From: Candidatus Hydrogenedentota bacterium
GTDB lineage: Bacteria > Hydrogenedentota > Hydrogenedentia > Hydrogenedentales > SLHB01
DNA length: 64,000 nucleotides
NCBI GenBank assembly: GCA_016215105.1
Contig: JACRLJ010000022.1
Span: forward strand, 3,407 to 67,406
Direction of reading: 5' to 3'
How positions within the stretch are numbered: position 1 is the stretch's first letter; every line of letters begins with the position of its first letter. The translations under genes were made by a program, and so were the position numbers. Under the pieces are notes generated by a model. That model had not been told where the DNA came from. It worked only from the letters and a program-made list of their open reading frames with translations, and did no database searches. Positions 5,647 through 50,535 of the stretch are shown piece by piece.

Positions 5647-6048
5647 ATGAAACACATCTGCGCCGCTATCGTGATTGGAGCATTGGCAGTCCTGGTGGGC
5701 TGCGATCAGGGCGTCTTGGGTGGCTTTGGCGCTTCGAAGACGCGTCCCAAGCAAGACACGGCGGCCTTGAGCGACGCCTCCAAGGCAAAGTGGAACGATT
5801 ACGCGAGCGAGATGCAGAAGCGGTTGGAGCAATTCTCGGCACAATACGCGGAACTGAGGGATCGCGCCGCCAAGGCCGAGGGGCAAGCCAAGACGGATCT
5901 CGATACGAAACTCGCGGAAGCGAAGACGAAGCGGGACGCGGCCGCCATCAAGCTTGACGAACTGAAATCAGCTGGCGCTGACCGCTGGGAAAAGGTCAAG
6001 GTAGGAGTCGAGGCGGCTTTCGACGACCTGAAAAAGATTTTTGAATGA
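5647..6048 (+). CDS. Coiled-coil lipoprotein, unknown function
   Basis: Lipobox MKHICAAIVIGALAVLVGC, followed by a charged helical sequence. Confidence 0.6.
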   Translation: MKHICAAIVIGALAVLVGCDQGVLGGFGASKTRPKQDTAALSDASKAKWNDYASEMQKRLEQFSAQYAELRDRAAKAEGQAKTDLDTKLAEAKTKRDAAAIKLDELKSAGADRWEKVKVGVEAAFDDLKKIFE

Positions 6049-6239
6049 CCGTCCTGGGAAGGGCGACACCGACAAGGATCCATGGAAGAAGTGTGGAGCG
6101 TAAAGAAGAGCAATTGCGGGATCATTGGTCGCTTATGAATATTGGAATTCGCGTCGCGGTCATGCCATTCGCTCATGACTTCCCATGCGGTTACAGGCCG
6201 GTCCACCCGGAATATCCCGGCGTCAGGTAGAGGCTAAGC

Positions 6240-25857: not shown

Positions 25858-26223
25858 ATGCACGAGCACGGGGAATCAGCCGATATGAGCGTCCGGTGTC
25901 TTGATGGAGTCAGGGATACGATCTATCGCGAAGAAGGTGTGGTCGCCACACGGTCAACGGCTGGATTCTGTATTCGAGTGCCTTACCCCGTTTCCTCGCA
26001 TCACCAATTTGGTATTGCCGGGGCACTGTGGGAAATTTGGGCCGCGATACGCGATCAAGTAGTGGATTCAGACCACGAGTGCATCGTGGATGTATCCGCG
26101 GTCGAGAACTTGCCGCTCCCGCTCATCTACGTCTTGGCGGCGATGGACGGCGATATGAATCAAGCCGGCCGCAAACTCATTTCCGTTGGCGCAAGACAGG
26201 GAGACCATCAGCGGTACACATGA
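25858..26223 (+). CDS. Hypothetical protein, weakly STAS/anti-sigma-antagonist-like
   Basis: IVDVSAVENLPLPLIYVLAAMDGDMNQAGRKLISVGAR resembles the STAS C-terminal pattern. This is a weak call. Confidence 0.3.
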   Translation: MHEHGESADMSVRCLDGVRDTIYREEGVVATRSTAGFCIRVPYPVSSHHQFGIAGALWEIWAAIRDQVVDSDHECIVDVSAVENLPLPLIYVLAAMDGDMNQAGRKLISVGARQGDHQRYT

Positions 26224-26290
26224 GAACTCCGGTGGCGGATGCGCGTGGCGAAACATCCGCGTCAACACAAAGAACGAAAGGATACGCAAC

Positions 26291-35378: not shown

Positions 35379-37334
35379 ATGCCGCAGTCAGCCCTTCGCC
35401 GCTGTAACTCTTGGGAGGTTTTGAGCGTGGCGAAATTGTCCCTTGCCCCCGTTTGCCCGGGGACTTTGACCATCCTGACGAGCGCCATTGTCGGCGTCGT
35501 CTTGATCGGCGCCTTGTACTGGGCTCAGACGGTGTTCATTCCGGTCGCCTTGGCCGTGTTTCTGGCGTTTCTACTTGCCCCGATCGTCACCGCGCTTCAA
35601 CGATGGCGCTTGGGCCGACGGCCCTCGGTTGTTGTCGTCGTCCTGCTCGCGGCCTTGGTGCTAGGCGGCGTTGTATGGATGGTCAAGGTGGAACTTACGA
35701 ACTTGGCCCACGAGCTGCCCACCTACACCCAAAACATCCAAGATAAGGTCAAGTATTTGCGGCAGTTGGGGCATGGCGTCGGCATGGAACGCCTGGGAAA
35801 ACTGACCGCGGATATCGCCGAGGAGTGGGAAAAGACGCTGTCGAACTCGACAGGGGAAGAAACAGTTTCGCAGGACGGAGTGCTTCCCGCAGTTCCTGAG
35901 AAGTCGTCTACAGCGGCGGCCCCGTTGGAAAGCTCCGTGCCCGCCCTTCTGACTCATTCGGCGAGCCCAACGTGGCCCTCGCGATTGATGGACTTTTTCA
36001 GCCCCGTGATGCCGTCGCTCGGTAGTCTGGGTCTGGCGTTGGTCCTGGTCGTGTTCATGCTCTTGGAGCGCGAGGCCCTGCGCAATCGTTTGATCCGGTT
36101 GGTGGGTCACGGGCGCATGACCGCGACGACCAAAGCCCTGGACGATGCGGGAGGCCGCATCAGCCGCTACTTGTTCCGGCAGCTCACGGTGAACGGTACG
36201 TACGGCTTGGCGTGGGGCCTGGCCTTGTACTTCATCGGCGTGGATTACGCCCTGCTTTGGGGATTTCTGGCTGCCGTCCTGCGCTACGTTCCGTACGTCG
36301 GGGCGCCCTTCGCGTCGCTGCTTCCGATCGCCCTCAGCCTGGCCCAGTTCCCCGGTTGGTGGCTTCCGATCGCGGTGATCGGGCTCTTCATCGTTCTGGA
36401 ACTCGTTTGCAGCAACGCCGTGGAGCCATGGCTGTACGGTCAGACCATTGGCGTCTCGGCGGTGGCCATGCTGATCGCCGCCGCGTTTTGGACCTTCCTG
36501 TGGGGACCTATCGGCTTGGTCCTGTCTGGCCCGCTGACAGTCTGCCTCGTGGTCCTCGGAAAGCACGTACCCGAGTTGGAGTTTTTCGCCGTGCTCCTTG
36601 GTGACGCCCCGGCGCTGGACGCGGATGTGAGCTACTACCAGCGTCTGCTGGCGCGAGATCAGGATGAGGCCGCGCAGTTGGTCCTGAAACAGGTCAAGGT
36701 TTCTCCTCCTGAACAGGTCTATGACGAACTGCTGGTCCCGGCGCTGGTCTACACCAAGCGGGATCGCGGGCGGGACTTCCTCACGGAATCCGACGAAGAG
36801 TTTGTCTTCCAGGCAACGCACGAGGTTATGGAGGACTTGGGCGAGCGCCGATCGGCCGCGACGTTGGCGGCGACAAAGAAGACGCCGGTCAGCGCAGGCC
36901 AAGCGCCGCCCTCTAGGGTTCACATCCTCGCATGTCCGGCTCGCGACCATGCGGATAGGCTGGCGATCGAGATGTTGCGCCAACTGCTCAACCCGGCCGA
37001 CTGGGATATGGAGATAACGGCGTTGGAGACGTTGACCGCCGAACTGGTGGCGCACGTGACCGAGGAGAAGTCCGCGCTCATTTGCATCGGCGCGCTGCCC
37101 CCGGGCGGCTTGGCCCACACCCGCTACCTGTGCAAGCGGCTGCGGGCGCGACATCCGGATCTCAAGATCATCGTCGGTCGATGGGGACTCACAGACAATG
37201 TGGACACAAACCGCGAACAACTTCTGGAGGTAGGGGCGGACCTGATGGCGACGACCTTGCTGGAAACGCGCAAACAGTTGAATGACTGGTTGCCGGTCCT
37301 GGCGTATGAAGAGCGAAAGACTGGCACAATGTGA
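35379..37334 (+). CDS. AI-2E (PerM/UPF0118) family transporter with ~200-aa cytoplasmic C-terminal extension
   Basis: Multiple TM helices with the typical ...FIPVALAVFLAFLLAPIV... and ...VEPWLYGQTIGVS... The tail VHILACPARDHADRLAIEML...SALICIGALPPGG...IIVGRWG looks like a B12-binding-type flavodoxin-like fold. Confidence 0.85.
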   Translation: MPQSALRRCNSWEVLSVAKLSLAPVCPGTLTILTSAIVGVVLIGALYWAQTVFIPVALAVFLAFLLAPIVTALQRWRLGRRPSVVVVVLLAALVLGGVVWMVKVELTNLAHELPTYTQNIQDKVKYLRQLGHGVGMERLGKLTADIAEEWEKTLSNSTGEETVSQDGVLPAVPEKSSTAAAPLESSVPALLTHSASPTWPSRLMDFFSPVMPSLGSLGLALVLVVFMLLEREALRNRLIRLVGHGRMTATTKALDDAGGRISRYLFRQLTVNGTYGLAWGLALYFIGVDYALLWGFLAAVLRYVPYVGAPFASLLPIALSLAQFPGWWLPIAVIGLFIVLELVCSNAVEPWLYGQTIGVSAVAMLIAAAFWTFLWGPIGLVLSGPLTVCLVVLGKHVPELEFFAVLLGDAPALDADVSYYQRLLARDQDEAAQLVLKQVKVSPPEQVYDELLVPALVYTKRDRGRDFLTESDEEFVFQATHEVMEDLGERRSAATLAATKKTPVSAGQAPPSRVHILACPARDHADRLAIEMLRQLLNPADWDMEITALETLTAELVAHVTEEKSALICIGALPPGGLAHTRYLCKRLRARHPDLKIIVGRWGLTDNVDTNREQLLEVGADLMATTLLETRKQLNDWLPVLAYEERKTGTM

Positions 37335-37986: not shown

Positions 37987-38697
37987 CTAAGCCGTGGCGC
38001 CTCCTGCGCGCGCAGTTACTCCCCCGAATCCAAAGATCCCCAACAGCGCGGCGAGAATCCGCGACACAGTATAGAGAATGCGCGTCAGCAGCGGCATGGG
38101 CTCGCCACTAACCTCATGAAACGCGCGAACCTTGACTATGATGTCGGAAAAACTGAGTATATCCTCGAAACCAAATTCCTCGGCCCGGCCAATTGACACC
38201 CAGAGCTTTCCGGAAATTCCATCCGGGTCGTAGGCAACGACGTAGTATTGACCGGTCTCCAGAGCCGCGCGATCCGATTCGCGCAGTATCCATGACTGGG
38301 TACCCGTAAAGGGTTCGTCGAAGAACGCGGGTTTATCGACCGATTGCAGCAGAACTCCACCGAGCCCGCTTGGGACCTCGAACGGAAGATCGATGCTTGG
38401 CAAGCCGGGCCCAAGCAGCGCGAGGACCGGCCGATAGTCTTTTAGCGTGTTGATCGCGGGCACGCCAAGTTGAAGGTAGATATTGTCTCCGTTCGATGCG
38501 TCGAATGTCAGCCATAGTCGCGCAGCGTCGAGGGTGACTTCGTGGTAAACAACTTGCGAGACATTAGGCTCTTCGATCAGGAGCGCGCTCTCCGCGTCAA
38601 TGTGGGTGCCGTCGTCAAATACGGGGCGATGCGCCCATGCGGGCAGCGCCGCGGCCGCAACCACGCCCAAGCACGCAACAACTCTTCTGAGGTCCAT
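37987..38697 (-). CDS. Secreted hypothetical protein with C-terminal TM anchor
   Basis: ATG at 38697 with RBS AAGGAG. Signal MDLRRVVACLGVVAAAALPAWA. C-terminal LLTRILYTVSRILAALLGIFGF. Confidence 0.6.
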   Translation of the reverse strand: MDLRRVVACLGVVAAAALPAWAHRPVFDDGTHIDAESALLIEEPNVSQVVYHEVTLDAARLWLTFDASNGDNIYLQLGVPAINTLKDYRPVLALLGPGLPSIDLPFEVPSGLGGVLLQSVDKPAFFDEPFTGTQSWILRESDRAALETGQYYVVAYDPDGISGKLWVSIGRAEEFGFEDILSFSDIIVKVRAFHEVSGEPMPLLTRILYTVSRILAALLGIFGFGGVTARAGGATA

Positions 38698-38792
38698 CGC
38701 AACTACACTCCTTTCCTCTCCCAACGCCTTCCTCTCCCCGTCGGACACGTCTGAACCAGACACATCGACGGACAATAGGCTCAACTTTGATA

Positions 38793-40328
38793 TCACTCTA
38801 ATGGGGGCAATGATTGGTGATTCGGGCCGACTCTTACCGCGCGACTGACACCGCCCAGCGAATCGGCGTCGGAAGCGCGCCGTGCGATACCTCGCAGCAT
38901 ACCTCTGAACACAAGTTCATGAATCGGATACAGCAAGTACCAATAGAGGATTCCCATAACACCCTGGGGATCATAAACGGCTGTTTGTCGAATCTCCGTC
39001 TGGGAGCCTCGGCGATCAATCTCAAACTGCAACCACGCGCTGCCAAAGACCTTCATCTCTGCGCGCAGCAGCAGTTTCCTTGGGCGCTCGATGGCTTCGA
39101 CGCGCCAGCAGTCGACAATGTCGCCCGTGCGAAGATGATTCGGATCGCGGCGACCTCGCTGCATACCTACACCACCGACCATTCGATCGAGGAACCCGCG
39201 AACTTGCCAGAGCCCGTCGCCGTAGTACCATCCGTTAGGCCCTCCAATCCGTTCGATACACTCGAACACGCGCTCTGATTGGGCGTCCACCTCGATCACG
39301 CGCGAATCGACAATTCGTGGGCCGTGGCGCCGACCACCATATGTGGATGTGCCGGTCGAGCTGGACAAGGCGTCTGACCAATGCGTCTCCCGAAACGTCT
39401 CATCTTCCTCGCACAGGGCGCGCCGAATGGCCTCACTCACGTTCATCGGGCGGACGCTGAAGTCGCTCAATGCCTTGTCATCAGCGACAACGCTGGCGAC
39501 GCGGATACTGTCAATGAGTTTTCGGCCAACCTTTGCGAACAGCGGAGTCACGAGATTCAGCCACAGGCTGGACAGCCAAGGGGTTAGAAAAGGCACGTTG
39601 ATGTACAGGCGTCGCAATCCAGCGCTTTCCCCAAATCGCTTCATCAAGTCAAGATAGGACAGCTGCTCCTCGCCGCCGATTTCGTACACGGTGGAATTAG
39701 ACAGGGGAAGATCGATGGCTTGAACGAGGTACTCAAGCACATCGTCGATTGCGATTGGCTGCGCTTTCACTCGAACCCATTTTGGGACGACCATCACCGG
39801 CAGCCTTTGCACCAGGCTTCGGATGAGTTCGAAGGAAAGACTTCCCGGTCCGATAATGATGGAAGCTCGAAACTCCAGGGTGGGAACGCCGGATTCACGG
39901 AGTGCCTGACCCACCGCATGTCGGCTCCGCATGTGCGCCGATGTGGAGCTTTCCGAATCACCAAGACCGCCCAAGTAGATGATGCGGTTCACACCAGCCC
40001 TCTTGGCGGCAGCAGCAAAATTGCGGGCTCCGGCGAGTTCCGTTGATTCGAAGTCCCCGATCGATGCGAGCGCGTGAACCAGATAGAAGGCAATATCAAT
40101 TCCGCGGAGCGCCTCATCGAGTGTCGCAGGTTCCATTACGTCCCCGCGCACCACCTCTACATTTGGCGCAACGTGGCGCGTGAGATTCGACGGCGTTCGT
40201 GCCATGCAGCGGATCTGGATACCAATGGCCCGCAGGCGCGTTACCAATCTGCCTCCTACGTAGCCGGTAGCGCCCGAGACCAATACGCTTCTGGACTCCA
40301 ATTCTCTCCTTTCCAATGCCGAACTCAT
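38793..40328 (-). CDS. NAD(P)-binding SDR/NmrA-like domain fused to DUF2867
   Basis: VLVSGATGYVGGRLV Rossmann motif. The C-terminal GDIVDCWRVEAIERPRKLLLRAEMKVFGSAWLQFEI is typical of DUF2867. Confidence 0.85.
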   Translation of the reverse strand: MSSALERRELESRSVLVSGATGYVGGRLVTRLRAIGIQIRCMARTPSNLTRHVAPNVEVVRGDVMEPATLDEALRGIDIAFYLVHALASIGDFESTELAGARNFAAAAKRAGVNRIIYLGGLGDSESSTSAHMRSRHAVGQALRESGVPTLEFRASIIIGPGSLSFELIRSLVQRLPVMVVPKWVRVKAQPIAIDDVLEYLVQAIDLPLSNSTVYEIGGEEQLSYLDLMKRFGESAGLRRLYINVPFLTPWLSSLWLNLVTPLFAKVGRKLIDSIRVASVVADDKALSDFSVRPMNVSEAIRRALCEEDETFRETHWSDALSSSTGTSTYGGRRHGPRIVDSRVIEVDAQSERVFECIERIGGPNGWYYGDGLWQVRGFLDRMVGGVGMQRGRRDPNHLRTGDIVDCWRVEAIERPRKLLLRAEMKVFGSAWLQFEIDRRGSQTEIRQTAVYDPQGVMGILYWYLLYPIHELVFRGMLRGIARRASDADSLGGVSRAVRVGPNHQSLPPLE

Positions 40329-40331
40329 GGA

Positions 40332-41138
40332 TCAACAATCTCCCAACCGTTGACTCCGGAGACTATGCTCGATTTCAGTCAGCCTCGTTCGAATTTCCGT
40401 GAGGCGGTTCATGATTGAATTGGCGTCCGTATGTACTTCCACCCGAACTTCATTCTTGACCGACTCGAGGTTGTTGATCACGATAGCGATGAACAGGTTT
40501 ACGACTACAAAGACTGCGAACACCACAAAGCTCACGAAGTACATCCAAGCCCAGGGGTTTGTGGTCAACACGGCAGCCTGCACCTCCACCCATCCTTCTA
40601 GCGTTAGGATTTGGAAGAGGGTAAGCCCCGCACGTCCGAGACTCCTCCAGTGCTCCGGGTCAATGCGCCCGAAGAGATGTACCCCCAAGACTGCATAGAC
40701 ATACAGCATTAGGCCAAGCAATAGTAGGACGTTCGCGAGCGACGGGATGGATCGGAGCAGTGTATTGACGATGAGGCGCAGTTCAGGAATTGCGGAGACG
40801 ACGCGTAGCGCGCGCAGCAACCGGGCCAGGCGAGCAACGGTGGCGAAGGAGCCAGCCGCAGGAAGTAAAGACAAACCGACGATGAGGAAGTCGAAGACGT
40901 TCCAGCCGTCGCGGAAGAAAGACCAGACACGGGGAGCGTGCGCCAGGACCCGAATAACGATCTCGAGCAAGAAAACGGCCTGCACGGCGGTATTCAAGAT
41001 GCCGAAAAACGTCGCGTGTCGTGCCATTAGCTCCGCGTTAGTCTCTATCCCGATGAGAATCGCATTTCCGACGATGATGACGAGAATGCCTTTCTGGAAT
41101 ACGGGATTCTCGACGAAGCGGCGACAGGCGTAAATCAT
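40332..41138 (-). CDS. Single-domain voltage-gated cation channel (BacNaV/NaChBac-like)
   Basis: S4 has Arg every third residue: VARLARLLRALRVV. Pore LTLFQILTLEGWVEV (filter TLEGW versus TLESW in NaChBac). C-terminal coiled coil. The start overlaps the TerC stop as ATGA. Confidence 0.85.
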   Translation of the reverse strand: MIYACRRFVENPVFQKGILVIIVGNAILIGIETNAELMARHATFFGILNTAVQAVFLLEIVIRVLAHAPRVWSFFRDGWNVFDFLIVGLSLLPAAGSFATVARLARLLRALRVVSAIPELRLIVNTLLRSIPSLANVLLLLGLMLYVYAVLGVHLFGRIDPEHWRSLGRAGLTLFQILTLEGWVEVQAAVLTTNPWAWMYFVSFVVFAVFVVVNLFIAIVINNLESVKNEVRVEVHTDANSIMNRLTEIRTRLTEIEHSLRSQRLGDC

Positions 41139-42166
41139 TCGTGTGCAGTCCCCAGCGACCGGACTTTCCGCGGGAAGATCAGCGAAAGTACAACCGATAT
41201 TGCCACGACAGAGAGGATGATTCCGAGAGACCAGGTGATGGGAAACTTGCCCCCGAAAGCGTCATTCAACCATACCATCTTCAGGCCGACGAACATCAAC
41301 ACGAGTGCGAGTCCAAATTTGAGCATATGGAACTTGTCCACGGCGCCGGCAAGCATGAAATACATTGCCCGAAGACCGAGAATGGCAAACACGTTCGAGG
41401 TGTAGACGATCAAAGGCTCGCGTGTCAGCGCGAAGATCGCCGGCACAGAGTCCACGGCAAAGATGACATCAGTCATTTCGAGAAACAGCAGCGCCACAAA
41501 GAGCGGAGTGGCGCAGAGACGGCCGTCGATACGAATGAAGAAACTCTGACCGTGTACCTTCGGCGTGACCGGCATGAAACGTTTGAAAAGGCGTATCGCC
41601 GGGTTCTTCTCAGGGTTGATGCCCTTTTCCGGCGCGAAGATCATCTTGACCCCTGTGAGAATGAGCAGCGCGCCGAAAAAGATCACAATCCAGGAGTACT
41701 GCATCAGGACGGAACCCATCGCGATGAAGATCGCTCGGAAGATGAGAGCGCCGATGATGCCGTAGAACAGCACACGGTGCTGGTACTTCGGCGGAATCGA
41801 GAAGAACGAGAACACAACGACGAAGACAAAGATGTTGTCAACTGAGAGTGATTTTTCGACGATATAGCCGGTGAGAAATTCCAGCCCCACCTGCTTGGCG
41901 GCGGCGTTTGGTTCAAAGCCCGACACTGCGGTCAAACGCGCGTCTATCGCGAAATTGTTCGTCGCATAGAGGTAGAACCCGTAGTTGAAAGCTAGGGCAA
42001 GTCCAACCCAGATCACGCTCCAAACTGCCGCTTCCTTGAAAGACACTGCGTGCGCTGTTCGATGGAACACGCCAAGGTCGAGAGCCAGCATGAACAGGAC
42101 GCATGCTGTGAAACCTGCATAGAACCACCAGTACTCCACGAATGGAAAGAACAGAAGTTCAGCCAT
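41135..42166 (-). CDS. TerC-family integral membrane protein
   Basis: MAELLFFPFVEYWWFYAGF...LEFLTGYIVEKSLSVDNIFVF...DSVPAIFALT is the TerC pattern. Confidence 0.9.
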   Translation of the reverse strand: MAELLFFPFVEYWWFYAGFTACVLFMLALDLGVFHRTAHAVSFKEAAVWSVIWVGLALAFNYGFYLYATNNFAIDARLTAVSGFEPNAAAKQVGLEFLTGYIVEKSLSVDNIFVFVVVFSFFSIPPKYQHRVLFYGIIGALIFRAIFIAMGSVLMQYSWIVIFFGALLILTGVKMIFAPEKGINPEKNPAIRLFKRFMPVTPKVHGQSFFIRIDGRLCATPLFVALLFLEMTDVIFAVDSVPAIFALTREPLIVYTSNVFAILGLRAMYFMLAGAVDKFHMLKFGLALVLMFVGLKMVWLNDAFGGKFPITWSLGIILSVVAISVVLSLIFPRKVRSLGTAHE

Positions 42167-42289
42167 TGATACAACCCTCTATTACTGTGTAGTTGCCGGC
42201 TGCGAGTCTGGAAACGAACAAACCGGAAAGCGTACGTCGTGGTAGTGCGACGTGCAGCGATATGGCGACCGGCTGGAGGCCATCTCCCA

Positions 42290-42724
42290 TCACCGTTGTG
42301 TATCCAGGCGCTCACGCTCTTGCGCCGCAATCGTTACCAGGAAGTTGCCTGCCCGTTCGTAACTTAGTACGTATGGATCGAGCTTCTCGCCTCGTGTGAA
42401 CGCCAGAAGAGTGTTGGGGTCGATTTCCGCTCTCTTGATAAATGCCATCTTCCAGTTCCCAAATCCCCGCTCCTGAACACCCTTGTACCCGAGCAGCAGC
42501 GCGTCCGAGGGGCGGTCATCTCGTAGTATGCGCCGGTAAAGCGCATTTACTTCGTTCTTCGGCCCTTCCCGGCATTGAAGAACGAACAGGGGATCGTAGC
42601 AGAGAATAACGGTGATGTTTCTTGCGGCGTTATTCTCTCGCGACTTTTCCAGGATATCGTGAATGGCTTCCATTTCGCGCGCATCCGTCATGCGACTCAC
42701 ATAAATTAGCCGGGCCATTTCCAC
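42290..42724 (-). CDS. Short BLUF-domain blue-light photoreceptor
   Basis: ARLIYVS (conserved Tyr), DILEKSRENNAARNITVILCY, FVLQCREG (conserved Gln), FGNWKMAF (Trp/Met pair). Aligns along its length with the AppA BLUF core from memory. Start is GTG 42724 or ATG 42718. Confidence 0.85.
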   Translation of the reverse strand: MEMARLIYVSRMTDAREMEAIHDILEKSRENNAARNITVILCYDPLFVLQCREGPKNEVNALYRRILRDDRPSDALLLGYKGVQERGFGNWKMAFIKRAEIDPNTLLAFTRGEKLDPYVLSYERAGNFLVTIAAQERERLDTQR

Positions 42725-43338
42725 GTCAAGTTCTCCTGGTCGTCATCAAACGCGCCGCCCACACAAGAGTATAGTTCCATAGCACAGTTACGGACGAGGC
42801 CGTATGCTGCGATTACTTTCGCCACTTCCCTATTTGCACTGACTGCCCATCAGCCGCGACCTCCCCGATGCAATGTCCTAAGCACTAGCCATTGGAACGT
42901 TCAAATGATGTCTAATTATTCCTGGACATGAGAATGCACGGTTGAGAGCCACCGCTTGTAACTTTGTCGATCACGCATGAAATCATAAGTCAATATATTA
43001 CAATGTATTATATCAACAACACGTCTTCATCCCTAGTCTTGATTCTTCTTTGTGCCACAGCTCACTGCCACAAAACCCCGCGCCGATTGAGAAGAACTCG
43101 TTACCGGAAATCGCTGCTGGGAGACCGACTGGCAGTCGCATAAGAGTCTTATAACTACCTGTAACATAAAGTGTTATAGCTACTGATTCTTGACGTATAT
43201 TGCGGTAGAGCCGTGTTGTAAAGAAAAAAACTTATGTCTAAGAAATATTCGACACATGTCTTCGGTTACATAGACAACAGCAGAAAACGGCTAAACAGGC
43301 AGGCAAGGCAGTCATGAAGCCAGATAAGAAACGGGTGT

Positions 43339-44283
43339 ATGAACGAAGAAACGCCAGGATATCCAATCAACTACGTAGCGCGAATGACGGGTCTGACGCC
43401 GCATGCAATACGTAAGTGGGAACGACGATACGAACTTATCCAGCCCCGTCGGACAGCTTCCGGGCGCCGGATTTACAGTGATGCGCACATCGACAGACTG
43501 CGGCTGCTGAGACGGGCGACCGCGGCCGGCTATTCGATAGGCAAGCTCTCCAGGTTAGCGGAAGCTGAGCTGCGAAACATCGTGCGGGGCACTTTCGAGC
43601 CGGTAGCTACTTCAGTTTCTTCGGAATCGAAAGACGAGAACTCGTCGCTGCCGTGGTCCGATCTTCTGGAGAAGTGCCGCGTTGCCGTTCGGCAGATGGA
43701 CTGGGATCAACTAGATGCGCTGCTTGCGAAGAGCGGGGCAAGGATGGGTTGTCTCGAAACGATAGAACACGTGGTGACGCCACTCATGCGCTGGGTGGGG
43801 AGCCAGTGGCATGAAGGAAGACTCCGGGTTGCTCATGAACACATGGCGACATCAAGCGTTCGAGCCCACTTGGAACATGTTTACACTTCGGTCCGGAGTG
43901 AAGCTGCGGGTCCGGGTGTCGTACTTGCCACGTTGCCGCAGCAACGCCACGAAATTGGAATCTTGATGTGCGCCGTGGTTGCCGTGTTGGAGGGTTGGCG
44001 CGCTCACTATTTTGGGCTTGAGCTGCCGGTGGCCGATATCGCCGTGGCCGCGAGCCATGTGCGGGCAGAGTTGGTCGCATTGGGCCTGTCGACGATTGGC
44101 GATGGACAAGAACTGCTCGAACAACTGGCAGAACTTCGCGACGCACTTCCGGTCGGGACTCGTCTTGTCGTGGGCGGGCCAGCCGCGATGAACGTCAATG
44201 AGGATGTGGAGCGATTGGGAATCCAGTGCTTGGAGCGCATCGATCAATTCCAGGAGTTGCTGAGGGAGTACGGAACAAAATGA
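43339..44283 (+). CDS. CarH/LitR-type MerR-family regulator with B12-binding domain
   Basis: MerR HTH INYVARMTGLTPHAIRKWERRY...SGRRIYS. W-x9-EH motif WHEGRLRVAHEH. His-on-type motif QRHEIGILM, followed by a Rossmann-like B12 domain. Confidence 0.85.
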   Translation: MNEETPGYPINYVARMTGLTPHAIRKWERRYELIQPRRTASGRRIYSDAHIDRLRLLRRATAAGYSIGKLSRLAEAELRNIVRGTFEPVATSVSSESKDENSSLPWSDLLEKCRVAVRQMDWDQLDALLAKSGARMGCLETIEHVVTPLMRWVGSQWHEGRLRVAHEHMATSSVRAHLEHVYTSVRSEAAGPGVVLATLPQQRHEIGILMCAVVAVLEGWRAHYFGLELPVADIAVAASHVRAELVALGLSTIGDGQELLEQLAELRDALPVGTRLVVGGPAAMNVNEDVERLGIQCLERIDQFQELLREYGTK

Positions 44284-44305
44284 GTGACCGATTGGATGCT
44301 AAGCG

Positions 44306-45028
44306 ATGAGAATGAGGAGCACGTTGTTTTCTTTCTTCATAATAGGAGGCTTACTAATGGTTGGCTTGACCATTTGGATTGCTGTGGGAGTTGTGTCGGT
44401 GGCCGGTATTGAAACGCCGAAGTACGAGGTGATCGCCAAACACGATGGGTATGAAGTGCGGCAATACGCCCCACAAATTGTCGCCGAGGTCACCATGGGT
44501 GGCGAATTCCGGGAAGCTATGAATGGTGGTTTCCGAAAACTAGCCGACTATATTTTCGGAAACAATACGAAAGTGATCGATGGTCCTGCGTCGGGTTCCG
44601 AGAAAATCGAGATGACCGCGCCCGTGCTGGAGCAAGAAGTCAGCTCCGAGAAAATCAAGATGACAGCGCCAGTTCTGGAGCAACAAAGCAAGACTGACAC
44701 TCGAGTCGTTTCGTTTGTCATGCCGAGCAAGTACACTTTGGACACGTTGCCAAAACCAAATAACGCGGACGTAAGAGTTGTGGAGGTGCCCGCGAAACGC
44801 TATGCCGTCAATCGCTTTTCTGGAACCGCAACGCAAGACAAAGCCGCAAAAAAGAAGCAGGACTTGCTCGACGCGCTGAAGCGGGACAAGATTGAAGCGG
44901 TGGGCGCACCGCTCCTCGCACAGTATAACCCTCCGTGGACACCGCCCCTGATGCGCCGCAACGAAGTCATGGTTGAGATAGCCACTGAGCGAGCGGGTAA
45001 TGCGGCAACCGGGCAATCTTCAGAGTAA
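44306..45028 (+). CDS. SOUL heme-binding-family protein with N-terminal TM anchor
   Basis: ETPKYEVIAKHDGYEVRQYAPQIVAEV...GGFRKLADYIFGNN...IEMTAPV...YNPPWTPPLMRRNEVMVEI. Internal duplication EKIEMTAPVLEQE / EKIKMTAPVLEQQ. Confidence 0.8.
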   Translation: MRMRSTLFSFFIIGGLLMVGLTIWIAVGVVSVAGIETPKYEVIAKHDGYEVRQYAPQIVAEVTMGGEFREAMNGGFRKLADYIFGNNTKVIDGPASGSEKIEMTAPVLEQEVSSEKIKMTAPVLEQQSKTDTRVVSFVMPSKYTLDTLPKPNNADVRVVEVPAKRYAVNRFSGTATQDKAAKKKQDLLDALKRDKIEAVGAPLLAQYNPPWTPPLMRRNEVMVEIATERAGNAATGQSSE

Positions 45029-45231: not shown

Positions 45232-48200
45232 CTATAACTCAGCGCCCACCGCAAACGGTCCGCCTTGGATACCCAGATCGTTTCGCGATCCATCCGGATC
45301 GTTGTATTCCGGCGCAGGGTCGCCCGCATCACACAAGGACGATTCCGGCGCCAGGTACAGGTTCAGAGACAACACATCGACGAACAGCGGATTGTCGTTC
45401 CGGTCGGTCGCCGACGTCATCGCGCCGACGAGATCGGCGCCATTGGAGTAGTAGTCGTTATAGGCGCTGGACGAGTTTGGCCCGAGGCCTATCGAGCAAC
45501 CGGAGGTGTTGAACGCGAAGATGTTGTTGCGCATCCGCACCCCGGCTGTCGGGTCGCCGGAGACGCCGAGATCGTTCAGGACGACAGCGTTGTTTGCAAA
45601 CGAGATCGAGGCCCGTTCTTGGACGTACACGGCCGTTGCGCTCGAATGGAGCGTACAATTTGAGATTTCCGCGCTGACGTCCGCAGGCACAGTGATCGCA
45701 GGAGCGCCGGGTCCGCTCAGCGAGAAGCCCCGGATCGAGGAGCCGGCCGCCAGGGTTACCACTGTCTGCAGGGTGTCCGGGCCGGCCAGTATTGTGGTTC
45801 GCGCTCCGCCGGAACTGCAGAGCGCGACCCTGGCCTTGAGGATGACATGTTCCGTGTAGACGCCCGGTAAGACGACGATGGTATCTCCGCGGCCGGTCAG
45901 GCTAGAGGCCATTGCTTCGGCGATCGTGTTGTAAGGATTGGCTGACGAGCCGCTCTCAGTCCCGTGATACGACGCATCAACGTAGATCGTCTCCGCGGCG
46001 CCGGTCAGTTGATTGATCGATCCCGCAATGTTCAACCCCAACGCCGCGTTAGTGACCAGTTGAACGTCAGTGGCGTCGATGCGTCCGTCGCCGTTGATAT
46101 CCTCGAGAGTGTTGGGGGCGCCGCCGCGCAACGCGGCGTTGACCAGACGCTGTACGTCCATCGCGTTCACGAGTTCATCTCCAGTGACATCGCCGAAAGC
46201 CGGCATATCGAGCGAAGACAGCGGGTCCTTGCCGCGGGAGACTTCGAATCCGTCCAGCGCGCCATCGCCGTCGGTGTCTTGATTGCACGGATCCGAGCCG
46301 ATACGGAACTCGTTACTATCGGTCAGCGCATCGCCGTCGGAATCGTCATCGAGATAGTTGGGCACGCCGTCGCCGTCGGGGTCGTCCGTACCTTCCTCGC
46401 CGTCCGTAAAACCATCCTTATCCGTGTCAAAGCCGGGAATGTAGGTAACGACAATCGTTGCGGGGGCGCTGGCGTTCAGCGAATCGTCAAAGGCGACGAC
46501 TTCGAAGAGTTGGGCGCCCAGTTGAAGTGATTTCGGCGATTGCCACACGCCATTCACGGGCGCGAGGTCAATCTTGGCTCCGTTCACTTCGACCAGAGTG
46601 ACGTCCGAGTCCACCGTCCCTTGCAGCAGCACGGCCGGAATTCCGGTAGTCAGATCGGCGCCGCCGTTGGTGGTGATAGCGGGGGGCGCGGGCGGTGTAG
46701 TGTCGGCAAGGTTGACGTAGATCGCCTGGATCTGCTTGTGTCCGGTCATTTGGACCGTGGTGCGGGCGGAGGTATCGAGGGATTTCAGCACGTGGCCGGA
46801 GGGGTCCGCCCAACGTTCGAAGGCATAGGTGCCGTAGGTCGCGGGGGCCTCCAACACCACGGCGTCGCCCCGATTGAACGTCCGAACAAAGTCGCCGCGC
46901 CCGTCGCCACGGCCATTTACATCCTGCTTGAGGGCTTTGGCTACCGGCTCGATGAAGATTGTGGGCGTCAAACCTTCGGAGATCCGCACGTCGAGTTCGC
47001 TTTGGTCGGACCGCTTCTCGAAGTAGTCATATTGGACCTCGATTCGCAGGCCGTCGATCATCATATCGACACCGGTACCGGTGACCGATTCCTTCGTGAT
47101 CAGGATGTCGCCCCAGGCGGCAGGGCGCGAATACAGCATCAGGTCCGGGTTGACATATCCCAAGGCGTCTTCGAGCAGGAACCGCAGGAGTGACTGGCTC
47201 GCGGCGCTGATAGTCGTCTCCTGAGTCGTATGCCGTATGCCGTCATACACGGTCTTCCAGGAGATGGGATTCACCGCGGCATTGCGATAGTGCGCGAAGC
47301 GATAGGTGGCGCCGCGGGAGCTGAGCAGCGAGAGGCCGGTGTGCTCATACTTGAGACGCAGTATGGCCGTGCCGCCGTAGTCCGACCCTTCGCTCGGGTG
47401 GACGTCGAGCGACTGCGTTCGCAGATCCACGATTCGGAGGTTCTCTTCGGTCACGCCGAAGATATTCCGTTTCTTCATGTTGATGTACACATACCCATCC
47501 CGATTCAGCTTCTCCAGTTCTTGTGGATTCAACGCGAAGGAGATGGGCGCCGATCGTTCCGGAGCGTTCACATTGAGTTCGTCGAAGATCTCCGCGGTGA
47601 CGCGGCTAAGCTCGTCGATGTAGAGCGACTTGAGCGTCTGGAACTCGTCCTGGGTGAGCAGGTGGTTGCGTCCGCTCGGCGCCGCGAGGGTCTGGAACGC
47701 GTCGAAAAGGGCGTTGAGGTTCAGTTCCCCTCCGTACGCCCGGAGCATGCGGTACTCGAAGGCCTTGGCCATGTAGTATTGATACTTGAGCAAACGGTCT
47801 TTGGCGCGGCGTTCCATTTCCTTGATGTACATGAACGCCCGCTCGTTAATTCTCTCGGAGTTCTCGGCGATATTCTCGTTGAGCGCCACGACGCCCAGCA
47901 TGGTCTGATCAACCTGGGCCGCGGCCGAGGTGAGGGTCTGCAAGGTGTCGGTGATGCGTTCGGCGAGCAGCTCTTTTTGTTCGGCCAACTCGAGGATATC
48001 CCCGGATATTTCTTGAAACGCGGGATCGGTGGCCTTCAGCCGTTGAATTTCGGCTTCCATCTCGTCTTTTGGCGCCTGAGTGCCTTTGATTGAGGATATC
48101 AGCGGCCCGAGGCCTTCGGCCAATTGTTTGGAGTAGACTTGCAGGCTGGTGACTTCAACGTGGTACGCGCCCTCGTTTTCCTTGTTGAGTTCCTTCAGTT

Positions 48201-50535
48201 TCCGATTCAGTTGGTCCGACTTTCGGGCCATATCCGCCTGCCGGAACGTGTAGGCGAACTCGCCCGCTTGGGCCAAGGAGTCGATATCGTCCCACGAGGT
48301 CTCGGAATCGACGGTGGCCAGGATGTTGAGTCCACCGCCCAGGGCGCCGAGGACCGGCTGGTAGGCGGGCGCCATCTTGAGGCCGGCGCCGACGACCTTC
48401 AGCGCCTTTTCCCACCACGGCGGCTCCAAATTCTCTTCCGCTTTGGCTTTCAGGCGCTCCTCGATTTCCTGCAATTGCGTTTGCAGTTCGGTCATGTGGG
48501 TGGTGAGATTCGCCGCCTGAAGTTCCAGGCCGGGCATCGCCAACTGCGCGGTATTGAAGGTTTCTATGGCGGTATCGAGGTCGTTCTTGAGTTCGGCCTT
48601 GGCGTAGGTCATGGCGTCCCGCTTGTCCAAGGCGGTGTCGGCCAACGATCCCAGCCAGTAGGTCAGGTACAGTACGCGCAGTGAGCGGTCGACCTCACCC
48701 TCGAAGGCCGCGAGATTGGCCTCGAAGGACAGCATCGGGACCCAGCCCGCGGGGTTGCCGAAATAGTCCAGATTGTAGGACGCGCGGTGATGCAGCACCT
48801 CCATTTCCTGACGAATCTGTTCGAAGTCCGCCGCGTCGGCCTCGGACACCGGCCCCAATGCGCCGAGCAGATCGAGATATTCGGTCAACATGGCGCGCGC
48901 TTCTTCGATATGGCCGTTCAGGTACGTGTCTCTTATGTCGAGCAAGACGTTGCGTGCAGCGGCCGGAGTTAGCCAGTCATCGACAGTGCCTGCGACTTGG
49001 TCAACGTTGCCCGAAGGGCCGGCCACATTGCTGGGGCCAGACTTGCTTTCGCCTTCTAGAATGTCAAACGTGGTAACCGTCCAGACGGCTGGCGCGCAAT
49101 TCTCGAAGTACCAGAGGAAAGGAGGTATGATCCACACGAATTGGGACCGAAACCAGCCATCTACCCAATAGGCGGGATTGGGAGTCCCTGCCGCGCCCCC
49201 TGCTGCGGACGCGCCTTGGGCTCCCGGGCTTCCGCCTGCGGCATCCACTAGCGGTTTCAGATCACAAACCGCAGGGTCCAGCGTGGAATAGAACTCACCG
49301 GCTGCGCCGCCGATGCCGGGCGTTCCCGGCGCCACGGCGGGGCCACCGTTACCGGGGACGACCGCGGACCCGGAGCTCCAGTCATCATCGGCGTGACCCA
49401 AATCGTTACCGCCGCCGCAGTTTCCACACTTGTTCTCGTGGAGATGATACGAGAGAATCTTGGCCGAAGGGACCCCTGGAACGTACATCGGGGACACGGT
49501 GCATGGCGTTTGACTTATGCCTTGCGCGCCAGCGTGACCTGGGCCGGGAACTTGGCCTTGCCCGCCCCGAGCAACGAACCGCGGTGTCGCGCTCTTGAGC
49601 GGGGTTGGCGTGGCGAAGAATGACGCGATCTTCACCGCAATATCTCCCGCTTTCAACCCGGCCACGCCATTGGCAGCGGGAACGTCATCTGCGGCGCTAT
49701 AGATGTTTGGCCCGAGTTGAGCGCCGCTGGGAATCTGCTCGTTCGTCAACGGTGTGGTGATCAGGCGCGCCCGCTGATCTTCGGTCACGCCGTCCTTGTC
49801 CTCGAACCGGAGTTCGCGGGCCCGTATCGTCACATTCGTCTGGGGAAAATGAAGCGGGTCGCGAATAATCAGGGTTTCGGCCGAAATCGTCAATTCGGCG
49901 ATGTCCGTGCGATCATTATGAACTGCGTACAGATTGCCGGAATCCTTGTCGAACACGACCGTCTTCCCGGAAATCTGCAGGCGTTTCGCGAAGCGCTGCT
50001 CGGAACCGACGGTCCGGGGAAACGAAAGGTAATTGAGTTCCACGTTTTCGTAGATGTTTTCCTCGACAACGGTGGTATAGGCGGTGGGATCCGGGATGGG
50101 ACGGACATAGGTGATGATGTCCGCCTCGGGGGGGAAGTCGGCGACGGGCTCCATGGTGATGGTTTCCGACGCAGTTGTTCCAGCGGCCTGTGCCGTAAAG
50201 GCAATGGTGAACGGTTTGCGGTCTTGACTATCGGGTGTGTACTCGAATAGGCCGGTGAGGCCGTCTAGCGTTATTGGACCGACGGGCATGGGGGACACGT
50301 TCATCGAGTAGGCCGCTCCGGCGCCGAGGGCGGTCGAATACACCTGAAAGGTTCGCGTGTGTCCATAGTACGCGGCTTGTTCGCCAATCTCGCCGATATC
50401 GTACCGGGTGACCTCCGCTCCCGCCACGACAGCGGCGAGGGATAAGAGCGACAGCGTCATCCAGCGCCGGATCGAGGGACTATGAGTCAAGGTGCTAATC
50501 CGAAGGTGTGACACGTTCATGGCGGCGCCCTCCAT
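45232..50535 (-). CDS. Giant secreted multidomain protein (1767 aa)
   Basis: N-terminal signal. The C-terminal ~450 aa carry thrombospondin-type-3 Asp repeats (DTDKDGFTDGEEGTDDPDGDGVPNYLDDDSDGDALTD), a dockerin-like pair (DVTGDELVNAMDVQRLVN / DINGDGRIDATDVQLVTN) and a parallel beta-helix (NosD/pectate-lyase-like). The central ~900 aa are Gly-rich then helical/coiled-coil, and unrecognised. Confidence 0.9.
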   Translation of the reverse strand: MEGAAMNVSHLRISTLTHSPSIRRWMTLSLLSLAAVVAGAEVTRYDIGEIGEQAAYYGHTRTFQVYSTALGAGAAYSMNVSPMPVGPITLDGLTGLFEYTPDSQDRKPFTIAFTAQAAGTTASETITMEPVADFPPEADIITYVRPIPDPTAYTTVVEENIYENVELNYLSFPRTVGSEQRFAKRLQISGKTVVFDKDSGNLYAVHNDRTDIAELTISAETLIIRDPLHFPQTNVTIRARELRFEDKDGVTEDQRARLITTPLTNEQIPSGAQLGPNIYSAADDVPAANGVAGLKAGDIAVKIASFFATPTPLKSATPRFVARGGQGQVPGPGHAGAQGISQTPCTVSPMYVPGVPSAKILSYHLHENKCGNCGGGNDLGHADDDWSSGSAVVPGNGGPAVAPGTPGIGGAAGEFYSTLDPAVCDLKPLVDAAGGSPGAQGASAAGGAAGTPNPAYWVDGWFRSQFVWIIPPFLWYFENCAPAVWTVTTFDILEGESKSGPSNVAGPSGNVDQVAGTVDDWLTPAAARNVLLDIRDTYLNGHIEEARAMLTEYLDLLGALGPVSEADAADFEQIRQEMEVLHHRASYNLDYFGNPAGWVPMLSFEANLAAFEGEVDRSLRVLYLTYWLGSLADTALDKRDAMTYAKAELKNDLDTAIETFNTAQLAMPGLELQAANLTTHMTELQTQLQEIEERLKAKAEENLEPPWWEKALKVVGAGLKMAPAYQPVLGALGGGLNILATVDSETSWDDIDSLAQAGEFAYTFRQADMARKSDQLNRKLKELNKENEGAYHVEVTSLQVYSKQLAEGLGPLISSIKGTQAPKDEMEAEIQRLKATDPAFQEISGDILELAEQKELLAERITDTLQTLTSAAAQVDQTMLGVVALNENIAENSERINERAFMYIKEMERRAKDRLLKYQYYMAKAFEYRMLRAYGGELNLNALFDAFQTLAAPSGRNHLLTQDEFQTLKSLYIDELSRVTAEIFDELNVNAPERSAPISFALNPQELEKLNRDGYVYINMKKRNIFGVTEENLRIVDLRTQSLDVHPSEGSDYGGTAILRLKYEHTGLSLLSSRGATYRFAHYRNAAVNPISWKTVYDGIRHTTQETTISAASQSLLRFLLEDALGYVNPDLMLYSRPAAWGDILITKESVTGTGVDMMIDGLRIEVQYDYFEKRSDQSELDVRISEGLTPTIFIEPVAKALKQDVNGRGDGRGDFVRTFNRGDAVVLEAPATYGTYAFERWADPSGHVLKSLDTSARTTVQMTGHKQIQAIYVNLADTTPPAPPAITTNGGADLTTGIPAVLLQGTVDSDVTLVEVNGAKIDLAPVNGVWQSPKSLQLGAQLFEVVAFDDSLNASAPATIVVTYIPGFDTDKDGFTDGEEGTDDPDGDGVPNYLDDDSDGDALTDSNEFRIGSDPCNQDTDGDGALDGFEVSRGKDPLSSLDMPAFGDVTGDELVNAMDVQRLVNAALRGGAPNTLEDINGDGRIDATDVQLVTNAALGLNIAGSINQLTGAAETIYVDASYHGTESGSSANPYNTIAEAMASSLTGRGDTIVVLPGVYTEHVILKARVALCSSGGARTTILAGPDTLQTVVTLAAGSSIRGFSLSGPGAPAITVPADVSAEISNCTLHSSATAVYVQERASISFANNAVVLNDLGVSGDPTAGVRMRNNIFAFNTSGCSIGLGPNSSSAYNDYYSNGADLVGAMTSATDRNDNPLFVDVLSLNLYLAPESSLCDAGDPAPEYNDPDGSRNDLGIQGGPFAVGAEL

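Follow-up and report, generated by a model that had tools for sequence, protein, structure and literature searches.

Short BLUF proteins act via protein partners (reviewed in PMC5899715). In Pseudomonas mendocina, a short LOV protein, PmSB-LOV, is encoded beside the LitR-family protein PmlR2 and folM-folE-folX and inhibits DNA binding by PmlR2 in blue light; the operator of class II LitR is inverted, with the form TGTACA-N12-TGTACA (both from PMC9758184). PMC9304148 gives TnnACA as the CarH repeat signature. According to PMC7041947, CavMr is the only native voltage-gated Ca2+ channel of a prokaryote to have been characterised; its filter is TLEGWVD, and Gly4 sets Ca2+ selectivity. The TerC/Alx family is described as comprising divalent-metal (mainly Mn2+) exporters or metallochaperones. 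Here, we describe a locus in which a short BLUF gene is followed by genes for a TerC/Alx-family protein, a voltage-gated channel, a short-chain dehydrogenase/reductase (SDR) fused to DUF2867 and a secreted protein, and in which a CarH-type regulator gene lies on the other side. The locus was found in 64,000 nucleotides of an uncultured Candidatus Hydrogenedentota bacterium (contig JACRLJ010000022.1 of assembly GCA_016215105.1), hereafter the window, to which coordinates refer unless another locus is named. The names of its best protein matches likewise point to Hydrogenedentota.

A preliminary description of this DNA had proposed that the order of the five genes reflects light-dependent control of membrane ion flux, either through transcription from the shared upstream region or through direct contact between BLUF and its neighbours. 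Our analysis points to a different origin. The region is best explained as a light-response locus of CarH, a coenzyme-B12 photoreceptor and repressor, and probably as a CarH-controlled, light-inducible operon with lineage-specific mosaic cargo. Judged by gene neighbourhoods, what had been proposed as a BLUF-ion-flux system is a juxtaposition specific to one lineage and is not conserved as a system.

Candidate CarH operators between two divergent gene strings

The regulator (43339..44283, plus strand) is of the CarH/LitR class I type, with a MerR helix-turn-helix (HTH), a four-helix bundle and a B12-binding Rossmann domain. Its Pfam matches were MerR_1 (9.1e-18), B12-binding_2 (1.1e-10) and B12-binding (5.3e-07), and the NCBIfam CarH model matched at 1.3e-38, below its equivalog cut-off. 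The protein aligned to Thermus CarH (3WHP/5C8D) at 3e-27, and both W-x9-EH and the HxxG motif with the lower-ligand His are kept. The light theme, which this neighbouring CarH-type regulator had been said to strengthen, is real. The next gene, encoding a SOUL haem-binding family protein (44306..45028, plus strand; Pfam SOUL, 2.1e-52), begins 22 nt downstream of carH and is probably co-transcribed with it. This pair and the five-gene string on the minus strand point apart across a region of 614 bp.

A palindrome in this region was found by comparing the spacer between carH and BLUF with the equivalent divergent regions of three other loci (L005, L008 and L019). It has the form ATGTCTAA-N6-TTAGACAT, with the half-site TnnACA, which TAGACA, TGGACA and TCGACA all fit. 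With up to 3 mismatches allowed, the palindrome occurs exactly twice in the window, both times between carH and BLUF, against 0.04 occurrences expected by chance in the window, and none of 100 shuffles held two matches. Palindrome 1 (ATGTCTAAGAAATATTCGACAC; 43234..43255) consists of two inverted TnnACA half-sites and lies 84 nt upstream of the carH ATG, while palindrome 2 (ATGTCTAATTATTCCTGGACAT; 42908..42929) lies on the side of the BLUF operon. The two-site layout recurs in L005-7 and L008, and a single site is present in the homologous divergent region of L019; in all, three or four genomes besides this one have the palindrome at the corresponding place. Across 1.1 Mb of fetched loci only one further match was found at the same threshold, and the fetched BLUF loci that have no neighbouring carH do not contain the palindrome. 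Since TnnACA fits the CarH signature, the inverted layout is known from class II LitR and the placement is conserved, both palindromes are candidate CarH operators for the control of both divergent units. The earlier suggestion that light could act through the shared upstream region gains support from these two conserved sites.

Between the palindromes lies an AT-rich block (42977..43020) that is conserved with L005 and may hold the core promoter or promoters. One sigma-70-like match, on the plus strand at 42977-43004, falls inside this block. The leader next to palindrome 1 (43256-43338) is also conserved with L005 (8565-8645). In the window this leader precedes carH, whereas in L005 it precedes a fasciclin gene, which is followed by carH and SOUL; the conservation of the leader suggests that the fasciclin gene was lost in the lineage of the window.

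The five open reading frames (ORFs) reported on the minus strand at 37987-42724 are all present in the window, and an independent Logan assembly (L001, SRR12113407) agrees with the window at 100% identity from 37987 to 45028. The string begins with the BLUF gene (42290..42724; 144 aa, PixD-like, GTG start; Pfam BLUF, PF04940, 2.4e-23). It continues with the TerC/Alx-family metal-homeostasis membrane protein (41135..42166; 343 aa; PF03741, 1.9e-50), a CavMr-like (AnclNav) single-domain voltage-gated channel with six transmembrane segments (6-TM) (40332..41138; 268 aa; Ion_trans, 2.9e-47), the fusion of an atypical NmrA-like SDR with DUF2867 (38793..40328; 511 aa; NmrA/NAD_binding_10 and DUF2867, 1.8e-32) and the secreted protein with a C-terminal anchor (37987..38697; 236 aa, in an ORF of 37987-38796; no Pfam family). 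Read directly from the sequence, all four junctions are as previously reported: 123 nt separate the BLUF stop from the TerC ATG, the TerC stop and channel start overlap as ATGA, the channel stop lies 3 nt before the SDR ATG, and 95 nt lie between the SDR stop and the ATG of the secreted-protein gene at 38697. The latter ATG has GGAAAGGAG just before it. No terminator-like site was found in the 123-nt gap between BLUF and TerC, and terminator-like sites in the region were no commoner than in shuffles. Neither did the gap show signs of structured RNA (z = -0.02), and no riboswitch or other RNA matched Rfam at E up to 1 within 36-46 kb, the gap included.

We propose that in the dark CarH with bound adenosylcobalamin (AdoB12) would occupy both palindromes and repress both divergent units, carH-SOUL and the BLUF operon, and that in the light photolysis of the cofactor would derepress both. 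Since no terminator is evident, and since start codons along the string overlap or nearly touch the preceding stop codons, light would lead to joint production of BLUF, TerC, the channel, the SDR and probably the secreted protein. Such joint expression would make the link between light and ion flux a transcriptional one, accidental in origin, and not the mark of a BLUF-channel signalling pair. The BLUF protein would belong to, or modulate, a photo-oxidative-stress regulon, while TerC/Alx and the channel, which is probably Ca2+-selective, would form a separate functional pair for divalent-cation traffic.

Gene neighbourhoods and the junction between BLUF and TerC

We surveyed gene neighbourhoods from both sides of the BLUF-TerC junction. 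On the BLUF side, orthologues were traced into their contigs and a scan with a BLUF alignment was made, with one genome per GTDB species, which yielded 32 loci, mostly from metagenome-assembled genomes (MAGs) of Hydrogenedentota; all window proteins were compared with the BLUF loci by tblastn, and the loci with BLUF orthologues came to about 38 in total. Starting from the channel, we collected its nearest homologues together with 80 loci from metagenomes, for 88 channel-homologue loci. The combination of BLUF, TerC, channel and DUF2867, whose co-occurrence in related genomes had been raised as a check, was found in none of the approximately 37 other BLUF loci and in none of the 88 channel loci. 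Among the BLUF loci surveyed, only the window's own strain has TerC and the channel beside BLUF, and neither BLUF nor DUF2867 was found at any of the channel loci. The order BLUF-TerC-channel-DUF2867 thus has no synteny elsewhere in this survey and does not stand as a conserved unit. The MAG GCA_019695095.1 splits the string into two halves. On its contig JAIBAQ010000195 are BLUF, SDR/DUF2867 and the secreted protein (76%, 82% and 48% identity to the window, respectively), while TerC and the channel (82% and 71% identity) are on JAIBAQ010000089, with the same ATGA overlap and an adjoining convergent CDF gene.

The recurrent neighbours of BLUF are SDR/DUF2867, SOUL, CarH, Blc lipocalin, thiol peroxidase, folE with two tiny membrane ORFs, and a classical SDR (adh_short). 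SOUL is near BLUF in seven loci, and adjoins the BLUF orthologues of L005, L008, L009, L025, L032 and L034. A carH gene is found no further than 10 kb from BLUF in three of the approximately 38 loci (the window, L005 and L008). From its gene content, the neighbourhood of BLUF is one of light and photo-oxidative stress, not of ion transport. Literature searches on BLUF with TerC returned only noise, and those on BLUF with CarH/LitR, or on photoreception in Hydrogenedentota, nothing specific. In some genomes two BLUF genes are adjacent (L037, 10001-10962; L039, 10001-10870; L040, 1961-2809; L047, 256-1999); of these, L039 and L047 have as their second copy a longer BLUF fusion, whose C-terminal half appears EAL-like by eye.

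The 123-nt gap between BLUF and TerC is not an empty spacer. It holds a 43-codon ORF (42159..42290, minus strand) that is the 5' remnant of another gene, a classical SDR (adh_short), with similarity to L003, L018 and L005. At one end the ATG of the remnant shares nucleotides with the BLUF stop (TGATG), and at the other its stop codon falls on codons 2-3 of TerC. The approximately 45 nt directly after the BLUF stop are conserved between the window, L003 and L018. An intact classical SDR follows BLUF in L005 and starts with MEPGKQRVAILAPRSTIGQSVVERLGKSDCPFALIGRN; the N-terminus of the window remnant, MGDGLQPVAI, matches MEPGKQRVAILAPRSTIGQ of this protein. The corresponding remnant peptides are MEHGIQRVAKLAHD in L003 and MEDGIQRVAILAARSTIGQAVVRWLTRNDCRCALSG in L018, each ending at a stop codon. 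The L003 remnant, of 14 codons, likewise ends on the start of the next gene (TAATG).

Since the remnant corresponds to the N-terminus of an intact SDR, the ancestral order was likely folE-p55-p31-BLUF-adh_short, as in L005, L008 and L019. In these relatives the same regulatory region precedes folE-p55-p31-BLUF-SDR; in the lineage of the window, folE-p55-p31 is gone. In the clade of the window the classical SDR is truncated and SDR/DUF2867 comes next, and in the window alone TerC and the channel are placed between the remnant and the start codon of SDR/DUF2867, with the right-hand boundary of the cassette at most 3 nt from that codon. Neither direct or inverted repeats nor tRNA genes, as marks of a mobile element, were found flanking the cassette. 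Termination-reinitiation coupling from BLUF to TerC is possible because the remnant ORF stays open into codons 2-3 of TerC, though its open frame may be due to chance. The ORFs p55 and p31 are tiny, highly conserved and hydrophobic (55 and 31 aa), always lie between folE and BLUF (L005, 9693-9961; L008, 9663-9931; L019, 2104-2372) and matched no family; a decayed copy of the 31-aa ORF is present upstream of BLUF in L018.

TerC and the channel form a cassette that recurs without BLUF in at least five further contexts. The TerC protein matched the TerC/Alx model TIGR03718 with 396.7 bits, above the cut-off of 246.4. The channel matched Ion_trans with 161 bits. Its four S4 arginines (RLARLLRALR) and its TLEGW filter are as first described, and its C-terminal tail (IMNRLTEIRTRLTEIEHSL) is heptad-like. 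In view of the full filter, TLEGWVE, it is better assigned to a CavMr-like type than to the NaChBac type. The motif TLEGW[VI][ED] is present in 119 of the 120 best channel homologues and was not found in the remaining one; by this motif the channel is an ordinary member of a large CavMr-like clade. As the filter matches CavMr-like filters, the channel is probably Ca2+-selective.

The ATGA overlap of TerC and channel is found in the window, L015, L130 and L055, and a TAATG overlap in L131/132. The flanking genes differ at each locus, and BLUF is present in none of the other contexts. In addition, L096 has TerC shortly after the channel, L059 has the two genes convergent, and L070 has TerC upstream of the channel. 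Overall, TerC is close to the channel in eight of 74 informative loci, and in five of the 13 loci with at least 66% identity. For a gene with one or two copies, chance adjacency would be approximately 0.1% per locus by a rough estimate; compared with this expectation, the association looks real. Its simplest reading is that TerC and the channel are a pair of their own for the influx and efflux of divalent cations. The yybP-ykoY Mn2+ riboswitch that is typical of many TerC members was not detected upstream of TerC in the Rfam search described above. A conserved 5' leader was found neither among the five cassettes nor in the 790 nt that precede TerC in L015. The latter locus contains a repeated element of approximately 45 nt upstream of TerC (6040-6130 and 6480-6560; GGCTGGAGTCTGCCG.GCCT.CGGCAC...AGAGAAAAG), which resembles a REP-like intergenic repeat.

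The two genes that end the string belong to the BLUF side. SDR/DUF2867 orthologues with 80-82% identity follow BLUF in L003 and L018, and the fusion recurs by BLUF in L003/4, L018, L025 and L028; literature searches on DUF2867 gave nothing relevant. A 48%-identical orthologue of the secreted protein follows SDR/DUF2867 in L003. This protein has a signal peptide and a C-terminal hydrophobic helix; its family is uncharacterised and counts 458 homologues at E up to 0.001. A sequence search against the PDB gave nothing significant. Its AlphaFold2 model (pLDDT 92) is a beta-sandwich, which Foldseek matched to the ColG collagen-binding/PPC domain (1e-6, TMt 0.71), a generic match for this fold. Within the family, H194, E195 and the His that directly follows the predicted cleavage site of the signal peptide (AWA|H) are invariant, which suggests a putative metal site with an N-terminal His. 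Weak fold matches of the model to the copper-binding proteins CorA and MopE were also seen, and fusions to CIA30 (PF08547) occur among the homologues.

Beyond 35 kb and 45 kb, the flanks are unrelated to light and contain Ig-like and ice-binding-like proteins, type II secretion, a giant dockerin protein, ABC transport and molybdenum cofactor synthesis. On one side, the gene at 26186-29005 (plus strand) encodes a large surface or secreted protein with six Big_5 Ig-like domains and an ice-binding-like domain. On the other, a gene at 45232-50535 (minus strand) encodes a large surface or secreted protein of 1767 aa with dockerin and beta-helix segments. The light locus is bordered at 35379-37334 (plus strand) by a gene for an AI-2E/PerM-family transporter, whose C-terminal part resembles a B12-binding domain (24 bits, which is under the Pfam cut-off); PMC11796333 mentions a similar kind of AI-2E+CBD fusion, HaAI-2E. 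No palindrome was found upstream of this gene.

Divergence of the BLUF protein and rival explanations

The BLUF protein matched its Pfam model with 82.5 bits against a cut-off of 25 bits, covering profile positions 1-92 of 92, and its best solved relatives are TePixD (2e-18) and SyPixD (3e-14). The Tyr, Gln, Trp and Met signature residues are present, as had been noted, at Y8, Q50, W91 and M93 in PixD numbering. In alignment A1, Q50, W91 and M93 are invariant and Y8 nearly so, and all four are near-invariant in 137 diverse BLUFs. Other positions depart from the family. In the diverse set, Gly occupies position 39 in 136 of 136 proteins, position 72 holds His in 134 proteins and Asn in three, and position 52 holds Leu, Ile or Val in 135; instead, the window protein has V39 (for the Gly of ITG), R52 (at a hydrophobic site) and P72 (for the His of D-x-R-H), none of which was found in any of the 137. 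Set against its 20 orthologues, the protein stands alone at six columns with a conservation of at least 95% (C16R, G39V, F48V, L52R, H72P and V75A), and four of these substitutions are radical (C16R, G39V, L52R and H72P); the orthologues themselves have 0-4 such substitutions each, mostly conservative. The BLUF literature looked up made no mention of roles for His72, Gly39, Leu52 or Phe48.

In relative-rate tests, 9-19 changes were specific to the window BLUF, compared with 3-7 in sister lineages, with p-values of 0.002 to 0.29 depending on the outgroup. Synonymous sites are already saturated at this level of divergence, approximately 76% protein identity. The rates of the adjoining SDR/DUF2867 were symmetric (14 vs. 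11 and 11 vs. 14); therefore, the acceleration is specific to BLUF. It may reflect relaxed constraint or a change of function, and by its substitutions the BLUF of this strain appears atypical and possibly impaired.

Several observations weigh against a CarH-controlled operon with mosaic cargo. The AdoB12-CarH operators characterised so far consist of 11-bp direct repeats in tandem, whereas the sites in the window are inverted pairs. At 184 nt upstream of the BLUF start, palindrome 2 is more distant than would suit a classical repressor site, and a consensus scan found no sigma-70 promoters overlapping the palindromes. Co-transcription over the 123-nt and 95-nt gaps is inferred solely from the missing terminator-like sites. 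Finally, the acceleration of BLUF could equally mean adaptation to a new partner.

This last point leads to the alternative that the short BLUF contacts TerC, the C-terminal domain of the channel or the SDR and so places ion flux under blue-light control. The genes are co-directional and tightly packed, the remnant ORF spans the distance from the BLUF stop to the TerC start, short BLUFs are known to act through partners (PMC5899715), and a BLUF that evolves faster than its sisters, next to an SDR that does not, could reflect a new partner. However, the adjacency exists in one strain only among approximately 38 BLUF and 88 channel loci, the TerC-channel cassette occurs elsewhere without BLUF, the BLUF-TerC junction is a visible rearrangement scar, and V39, R52 and P72 fit decay at least as well as new function. 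We regard this contact model as very unlikely: nothing points to BLUF acting on membrane proteins, and the direct control of ion flux through BLUF and a partner that had been proposed for this locus is not supported. Decay itself provides another explanation, in which BLUF is a non-photoactive or decaying relic whose constraint was relaxed after loss of its ancestral downstream partner, and the cluster has no BLUF-dependent function. The six unique substitutions, four of them radical, where the 20 orthologues have 0-4, agree with such a relic, as do the three residues found in 0 of 137 diverse BLUFs and an acceleration limited to BLUF. It is nonetheless doubtful, given that the ORF is full-length and identical in an independent assembly, that Y8, Q50, W91, M93 and most other conserved residues are kept, and that the relative-rate p-value ranges from 0.002 to 0.29 with the outgroup.

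The BLUF protein might also act on the adjacent regulator, as a light-dependent modulator (anti-repressor) of CarH/LitR that adds a flavin blue-light input to the B12 input, with the operon cargo as the regulon. In E. coli, the BLUF protein BluF antagonises the MerR-like repressor BluR. A further precedent is PmSB-LOV with PmlR2 (PMC9758184), and loci of Hydrogenedentota have the same cast of CarH, folE, SDR and a short flavin photoreceptor, a striking parallel in L005, L008 and L019. Yet only three of approximately 38 loci have carH at most 10 kb from BLUF, the window CarH possesses the full set of AdoB12 motifs and requires no helper, and the window BLUF is atypical. We therefore consider such a role possible at a low probability; it is not exclusive of CarH control of a mosaic operon, which we continue to prefer. 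A bolder reading, which takes one of two forms, seems very unlikely. Either the fast-evolving BLUF (V39, R52, P72) took on direct, light-dependent regulation of the TerC-channel cassette once this had come to lie beside it, or the CarH operon provides light-induced voltage-gated Ca2+/Mn2+ traffic in the photo-oxidative-stress response. If either were true, a native bacterial voltage-gated calcium channel would for the first time have a physiological context. As the TerC-channel cassette lies inside a conserved CarH locus in one lineage, nothing suggests that BLUF controls the channel.

The result removes the attractive, unsupported idea of a BLUF-gated bacterial ion channel, and illustrates that a tight, translationally coupled gene string can come from recent rearrangement. 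It adds a CarH-type locus with a conserved candidate operator in Hydrogenedentota, a phylum known here from MAGs alone. The recurrent cassette of TerC/Alx with a CavMr-like channel is a clue to the purpose of native bacterial voltage-gated Ca2+ channels, and a natural BLUF variant without the invariant Gly39 and the near-invariant His72 is useful for structure-function work.

Comparison with known systems

The regulator resembles CarH/LitR of Thermus thermophilus and CarH of Myxococcus xanthus and Bacillus megaterium in its MerR HTH and B12 module with W-x9-EH and HxxG. As in class I CarH/LitR loci, carH is divergent from its presumed targets and the candidate operators contain TnnACA. The cargo differs: class I loci carry carotenoid genes, whereas the window carries BLUF, TerC, a Ca2+-type channel, SDR/DUF2867, a secreted protein and SOUL. 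The candidate operators differ as well, with inverted pairs of half-sites in the window and tandem 11-bp direct repeats in class I systems.

The class II LitR system of P. mendocina, PmlR2 with PmSB-LOV, is similar in another respect. As described in PMC9758184, it has inverted-repeat operators and pairs a short flavin photoreceptor with a LitR/CarH repressor, folE and an SDR, as do L005, L008 and L019. In contrast to that system, the photoreceptor here is BLUF and not LOV, the regulator has the full AdoB12 motif set, and folE and the classical SDR have been lost in the window.

Among BLUF systems, PixD (Slr1694/Tll0078)-PixE and PapB-PapA are similar in the size of the BLUF protein and in the Y8, Q50, W91 and M93 numbering, and TePixD is the best solved match. 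Unlike in these proteins, V39, R52 and P72 replace residues that are present in TePixD. No gene for a PixE-like Response_reg (PatA-type) or PapA-like EAL protein was found among the larger ORFs scanned in the window at 26-64 kb; among the BLUF loci surveyed, second BLUF copies with an EAL-like half are confined to the distant L039 and L047.

The channel resembles CavMr of Meiothermus ruber, of the AnclNav group (PMC7041947), in being a single-domain 6-TM protein with Gly as the fourth filter residue and an acidic seventh one. This likeness is one of sequence, and the residue at position 7 is Glu in the window channel and Asp in CavMr. The window channel is translationally coupled to TerC/Alx, and no such coupling was found described for CavMr. 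The TerC protein in turn resembles E. coli Alx and B. subtilis MeeF/MeeY of the TerC family in its TIGR03718 match above the curated cut-off. It differs from these proteins in that no yybP-ykoY Mn2+ riboswitch lies upstream and in that its partner is a voltage-gated channel.

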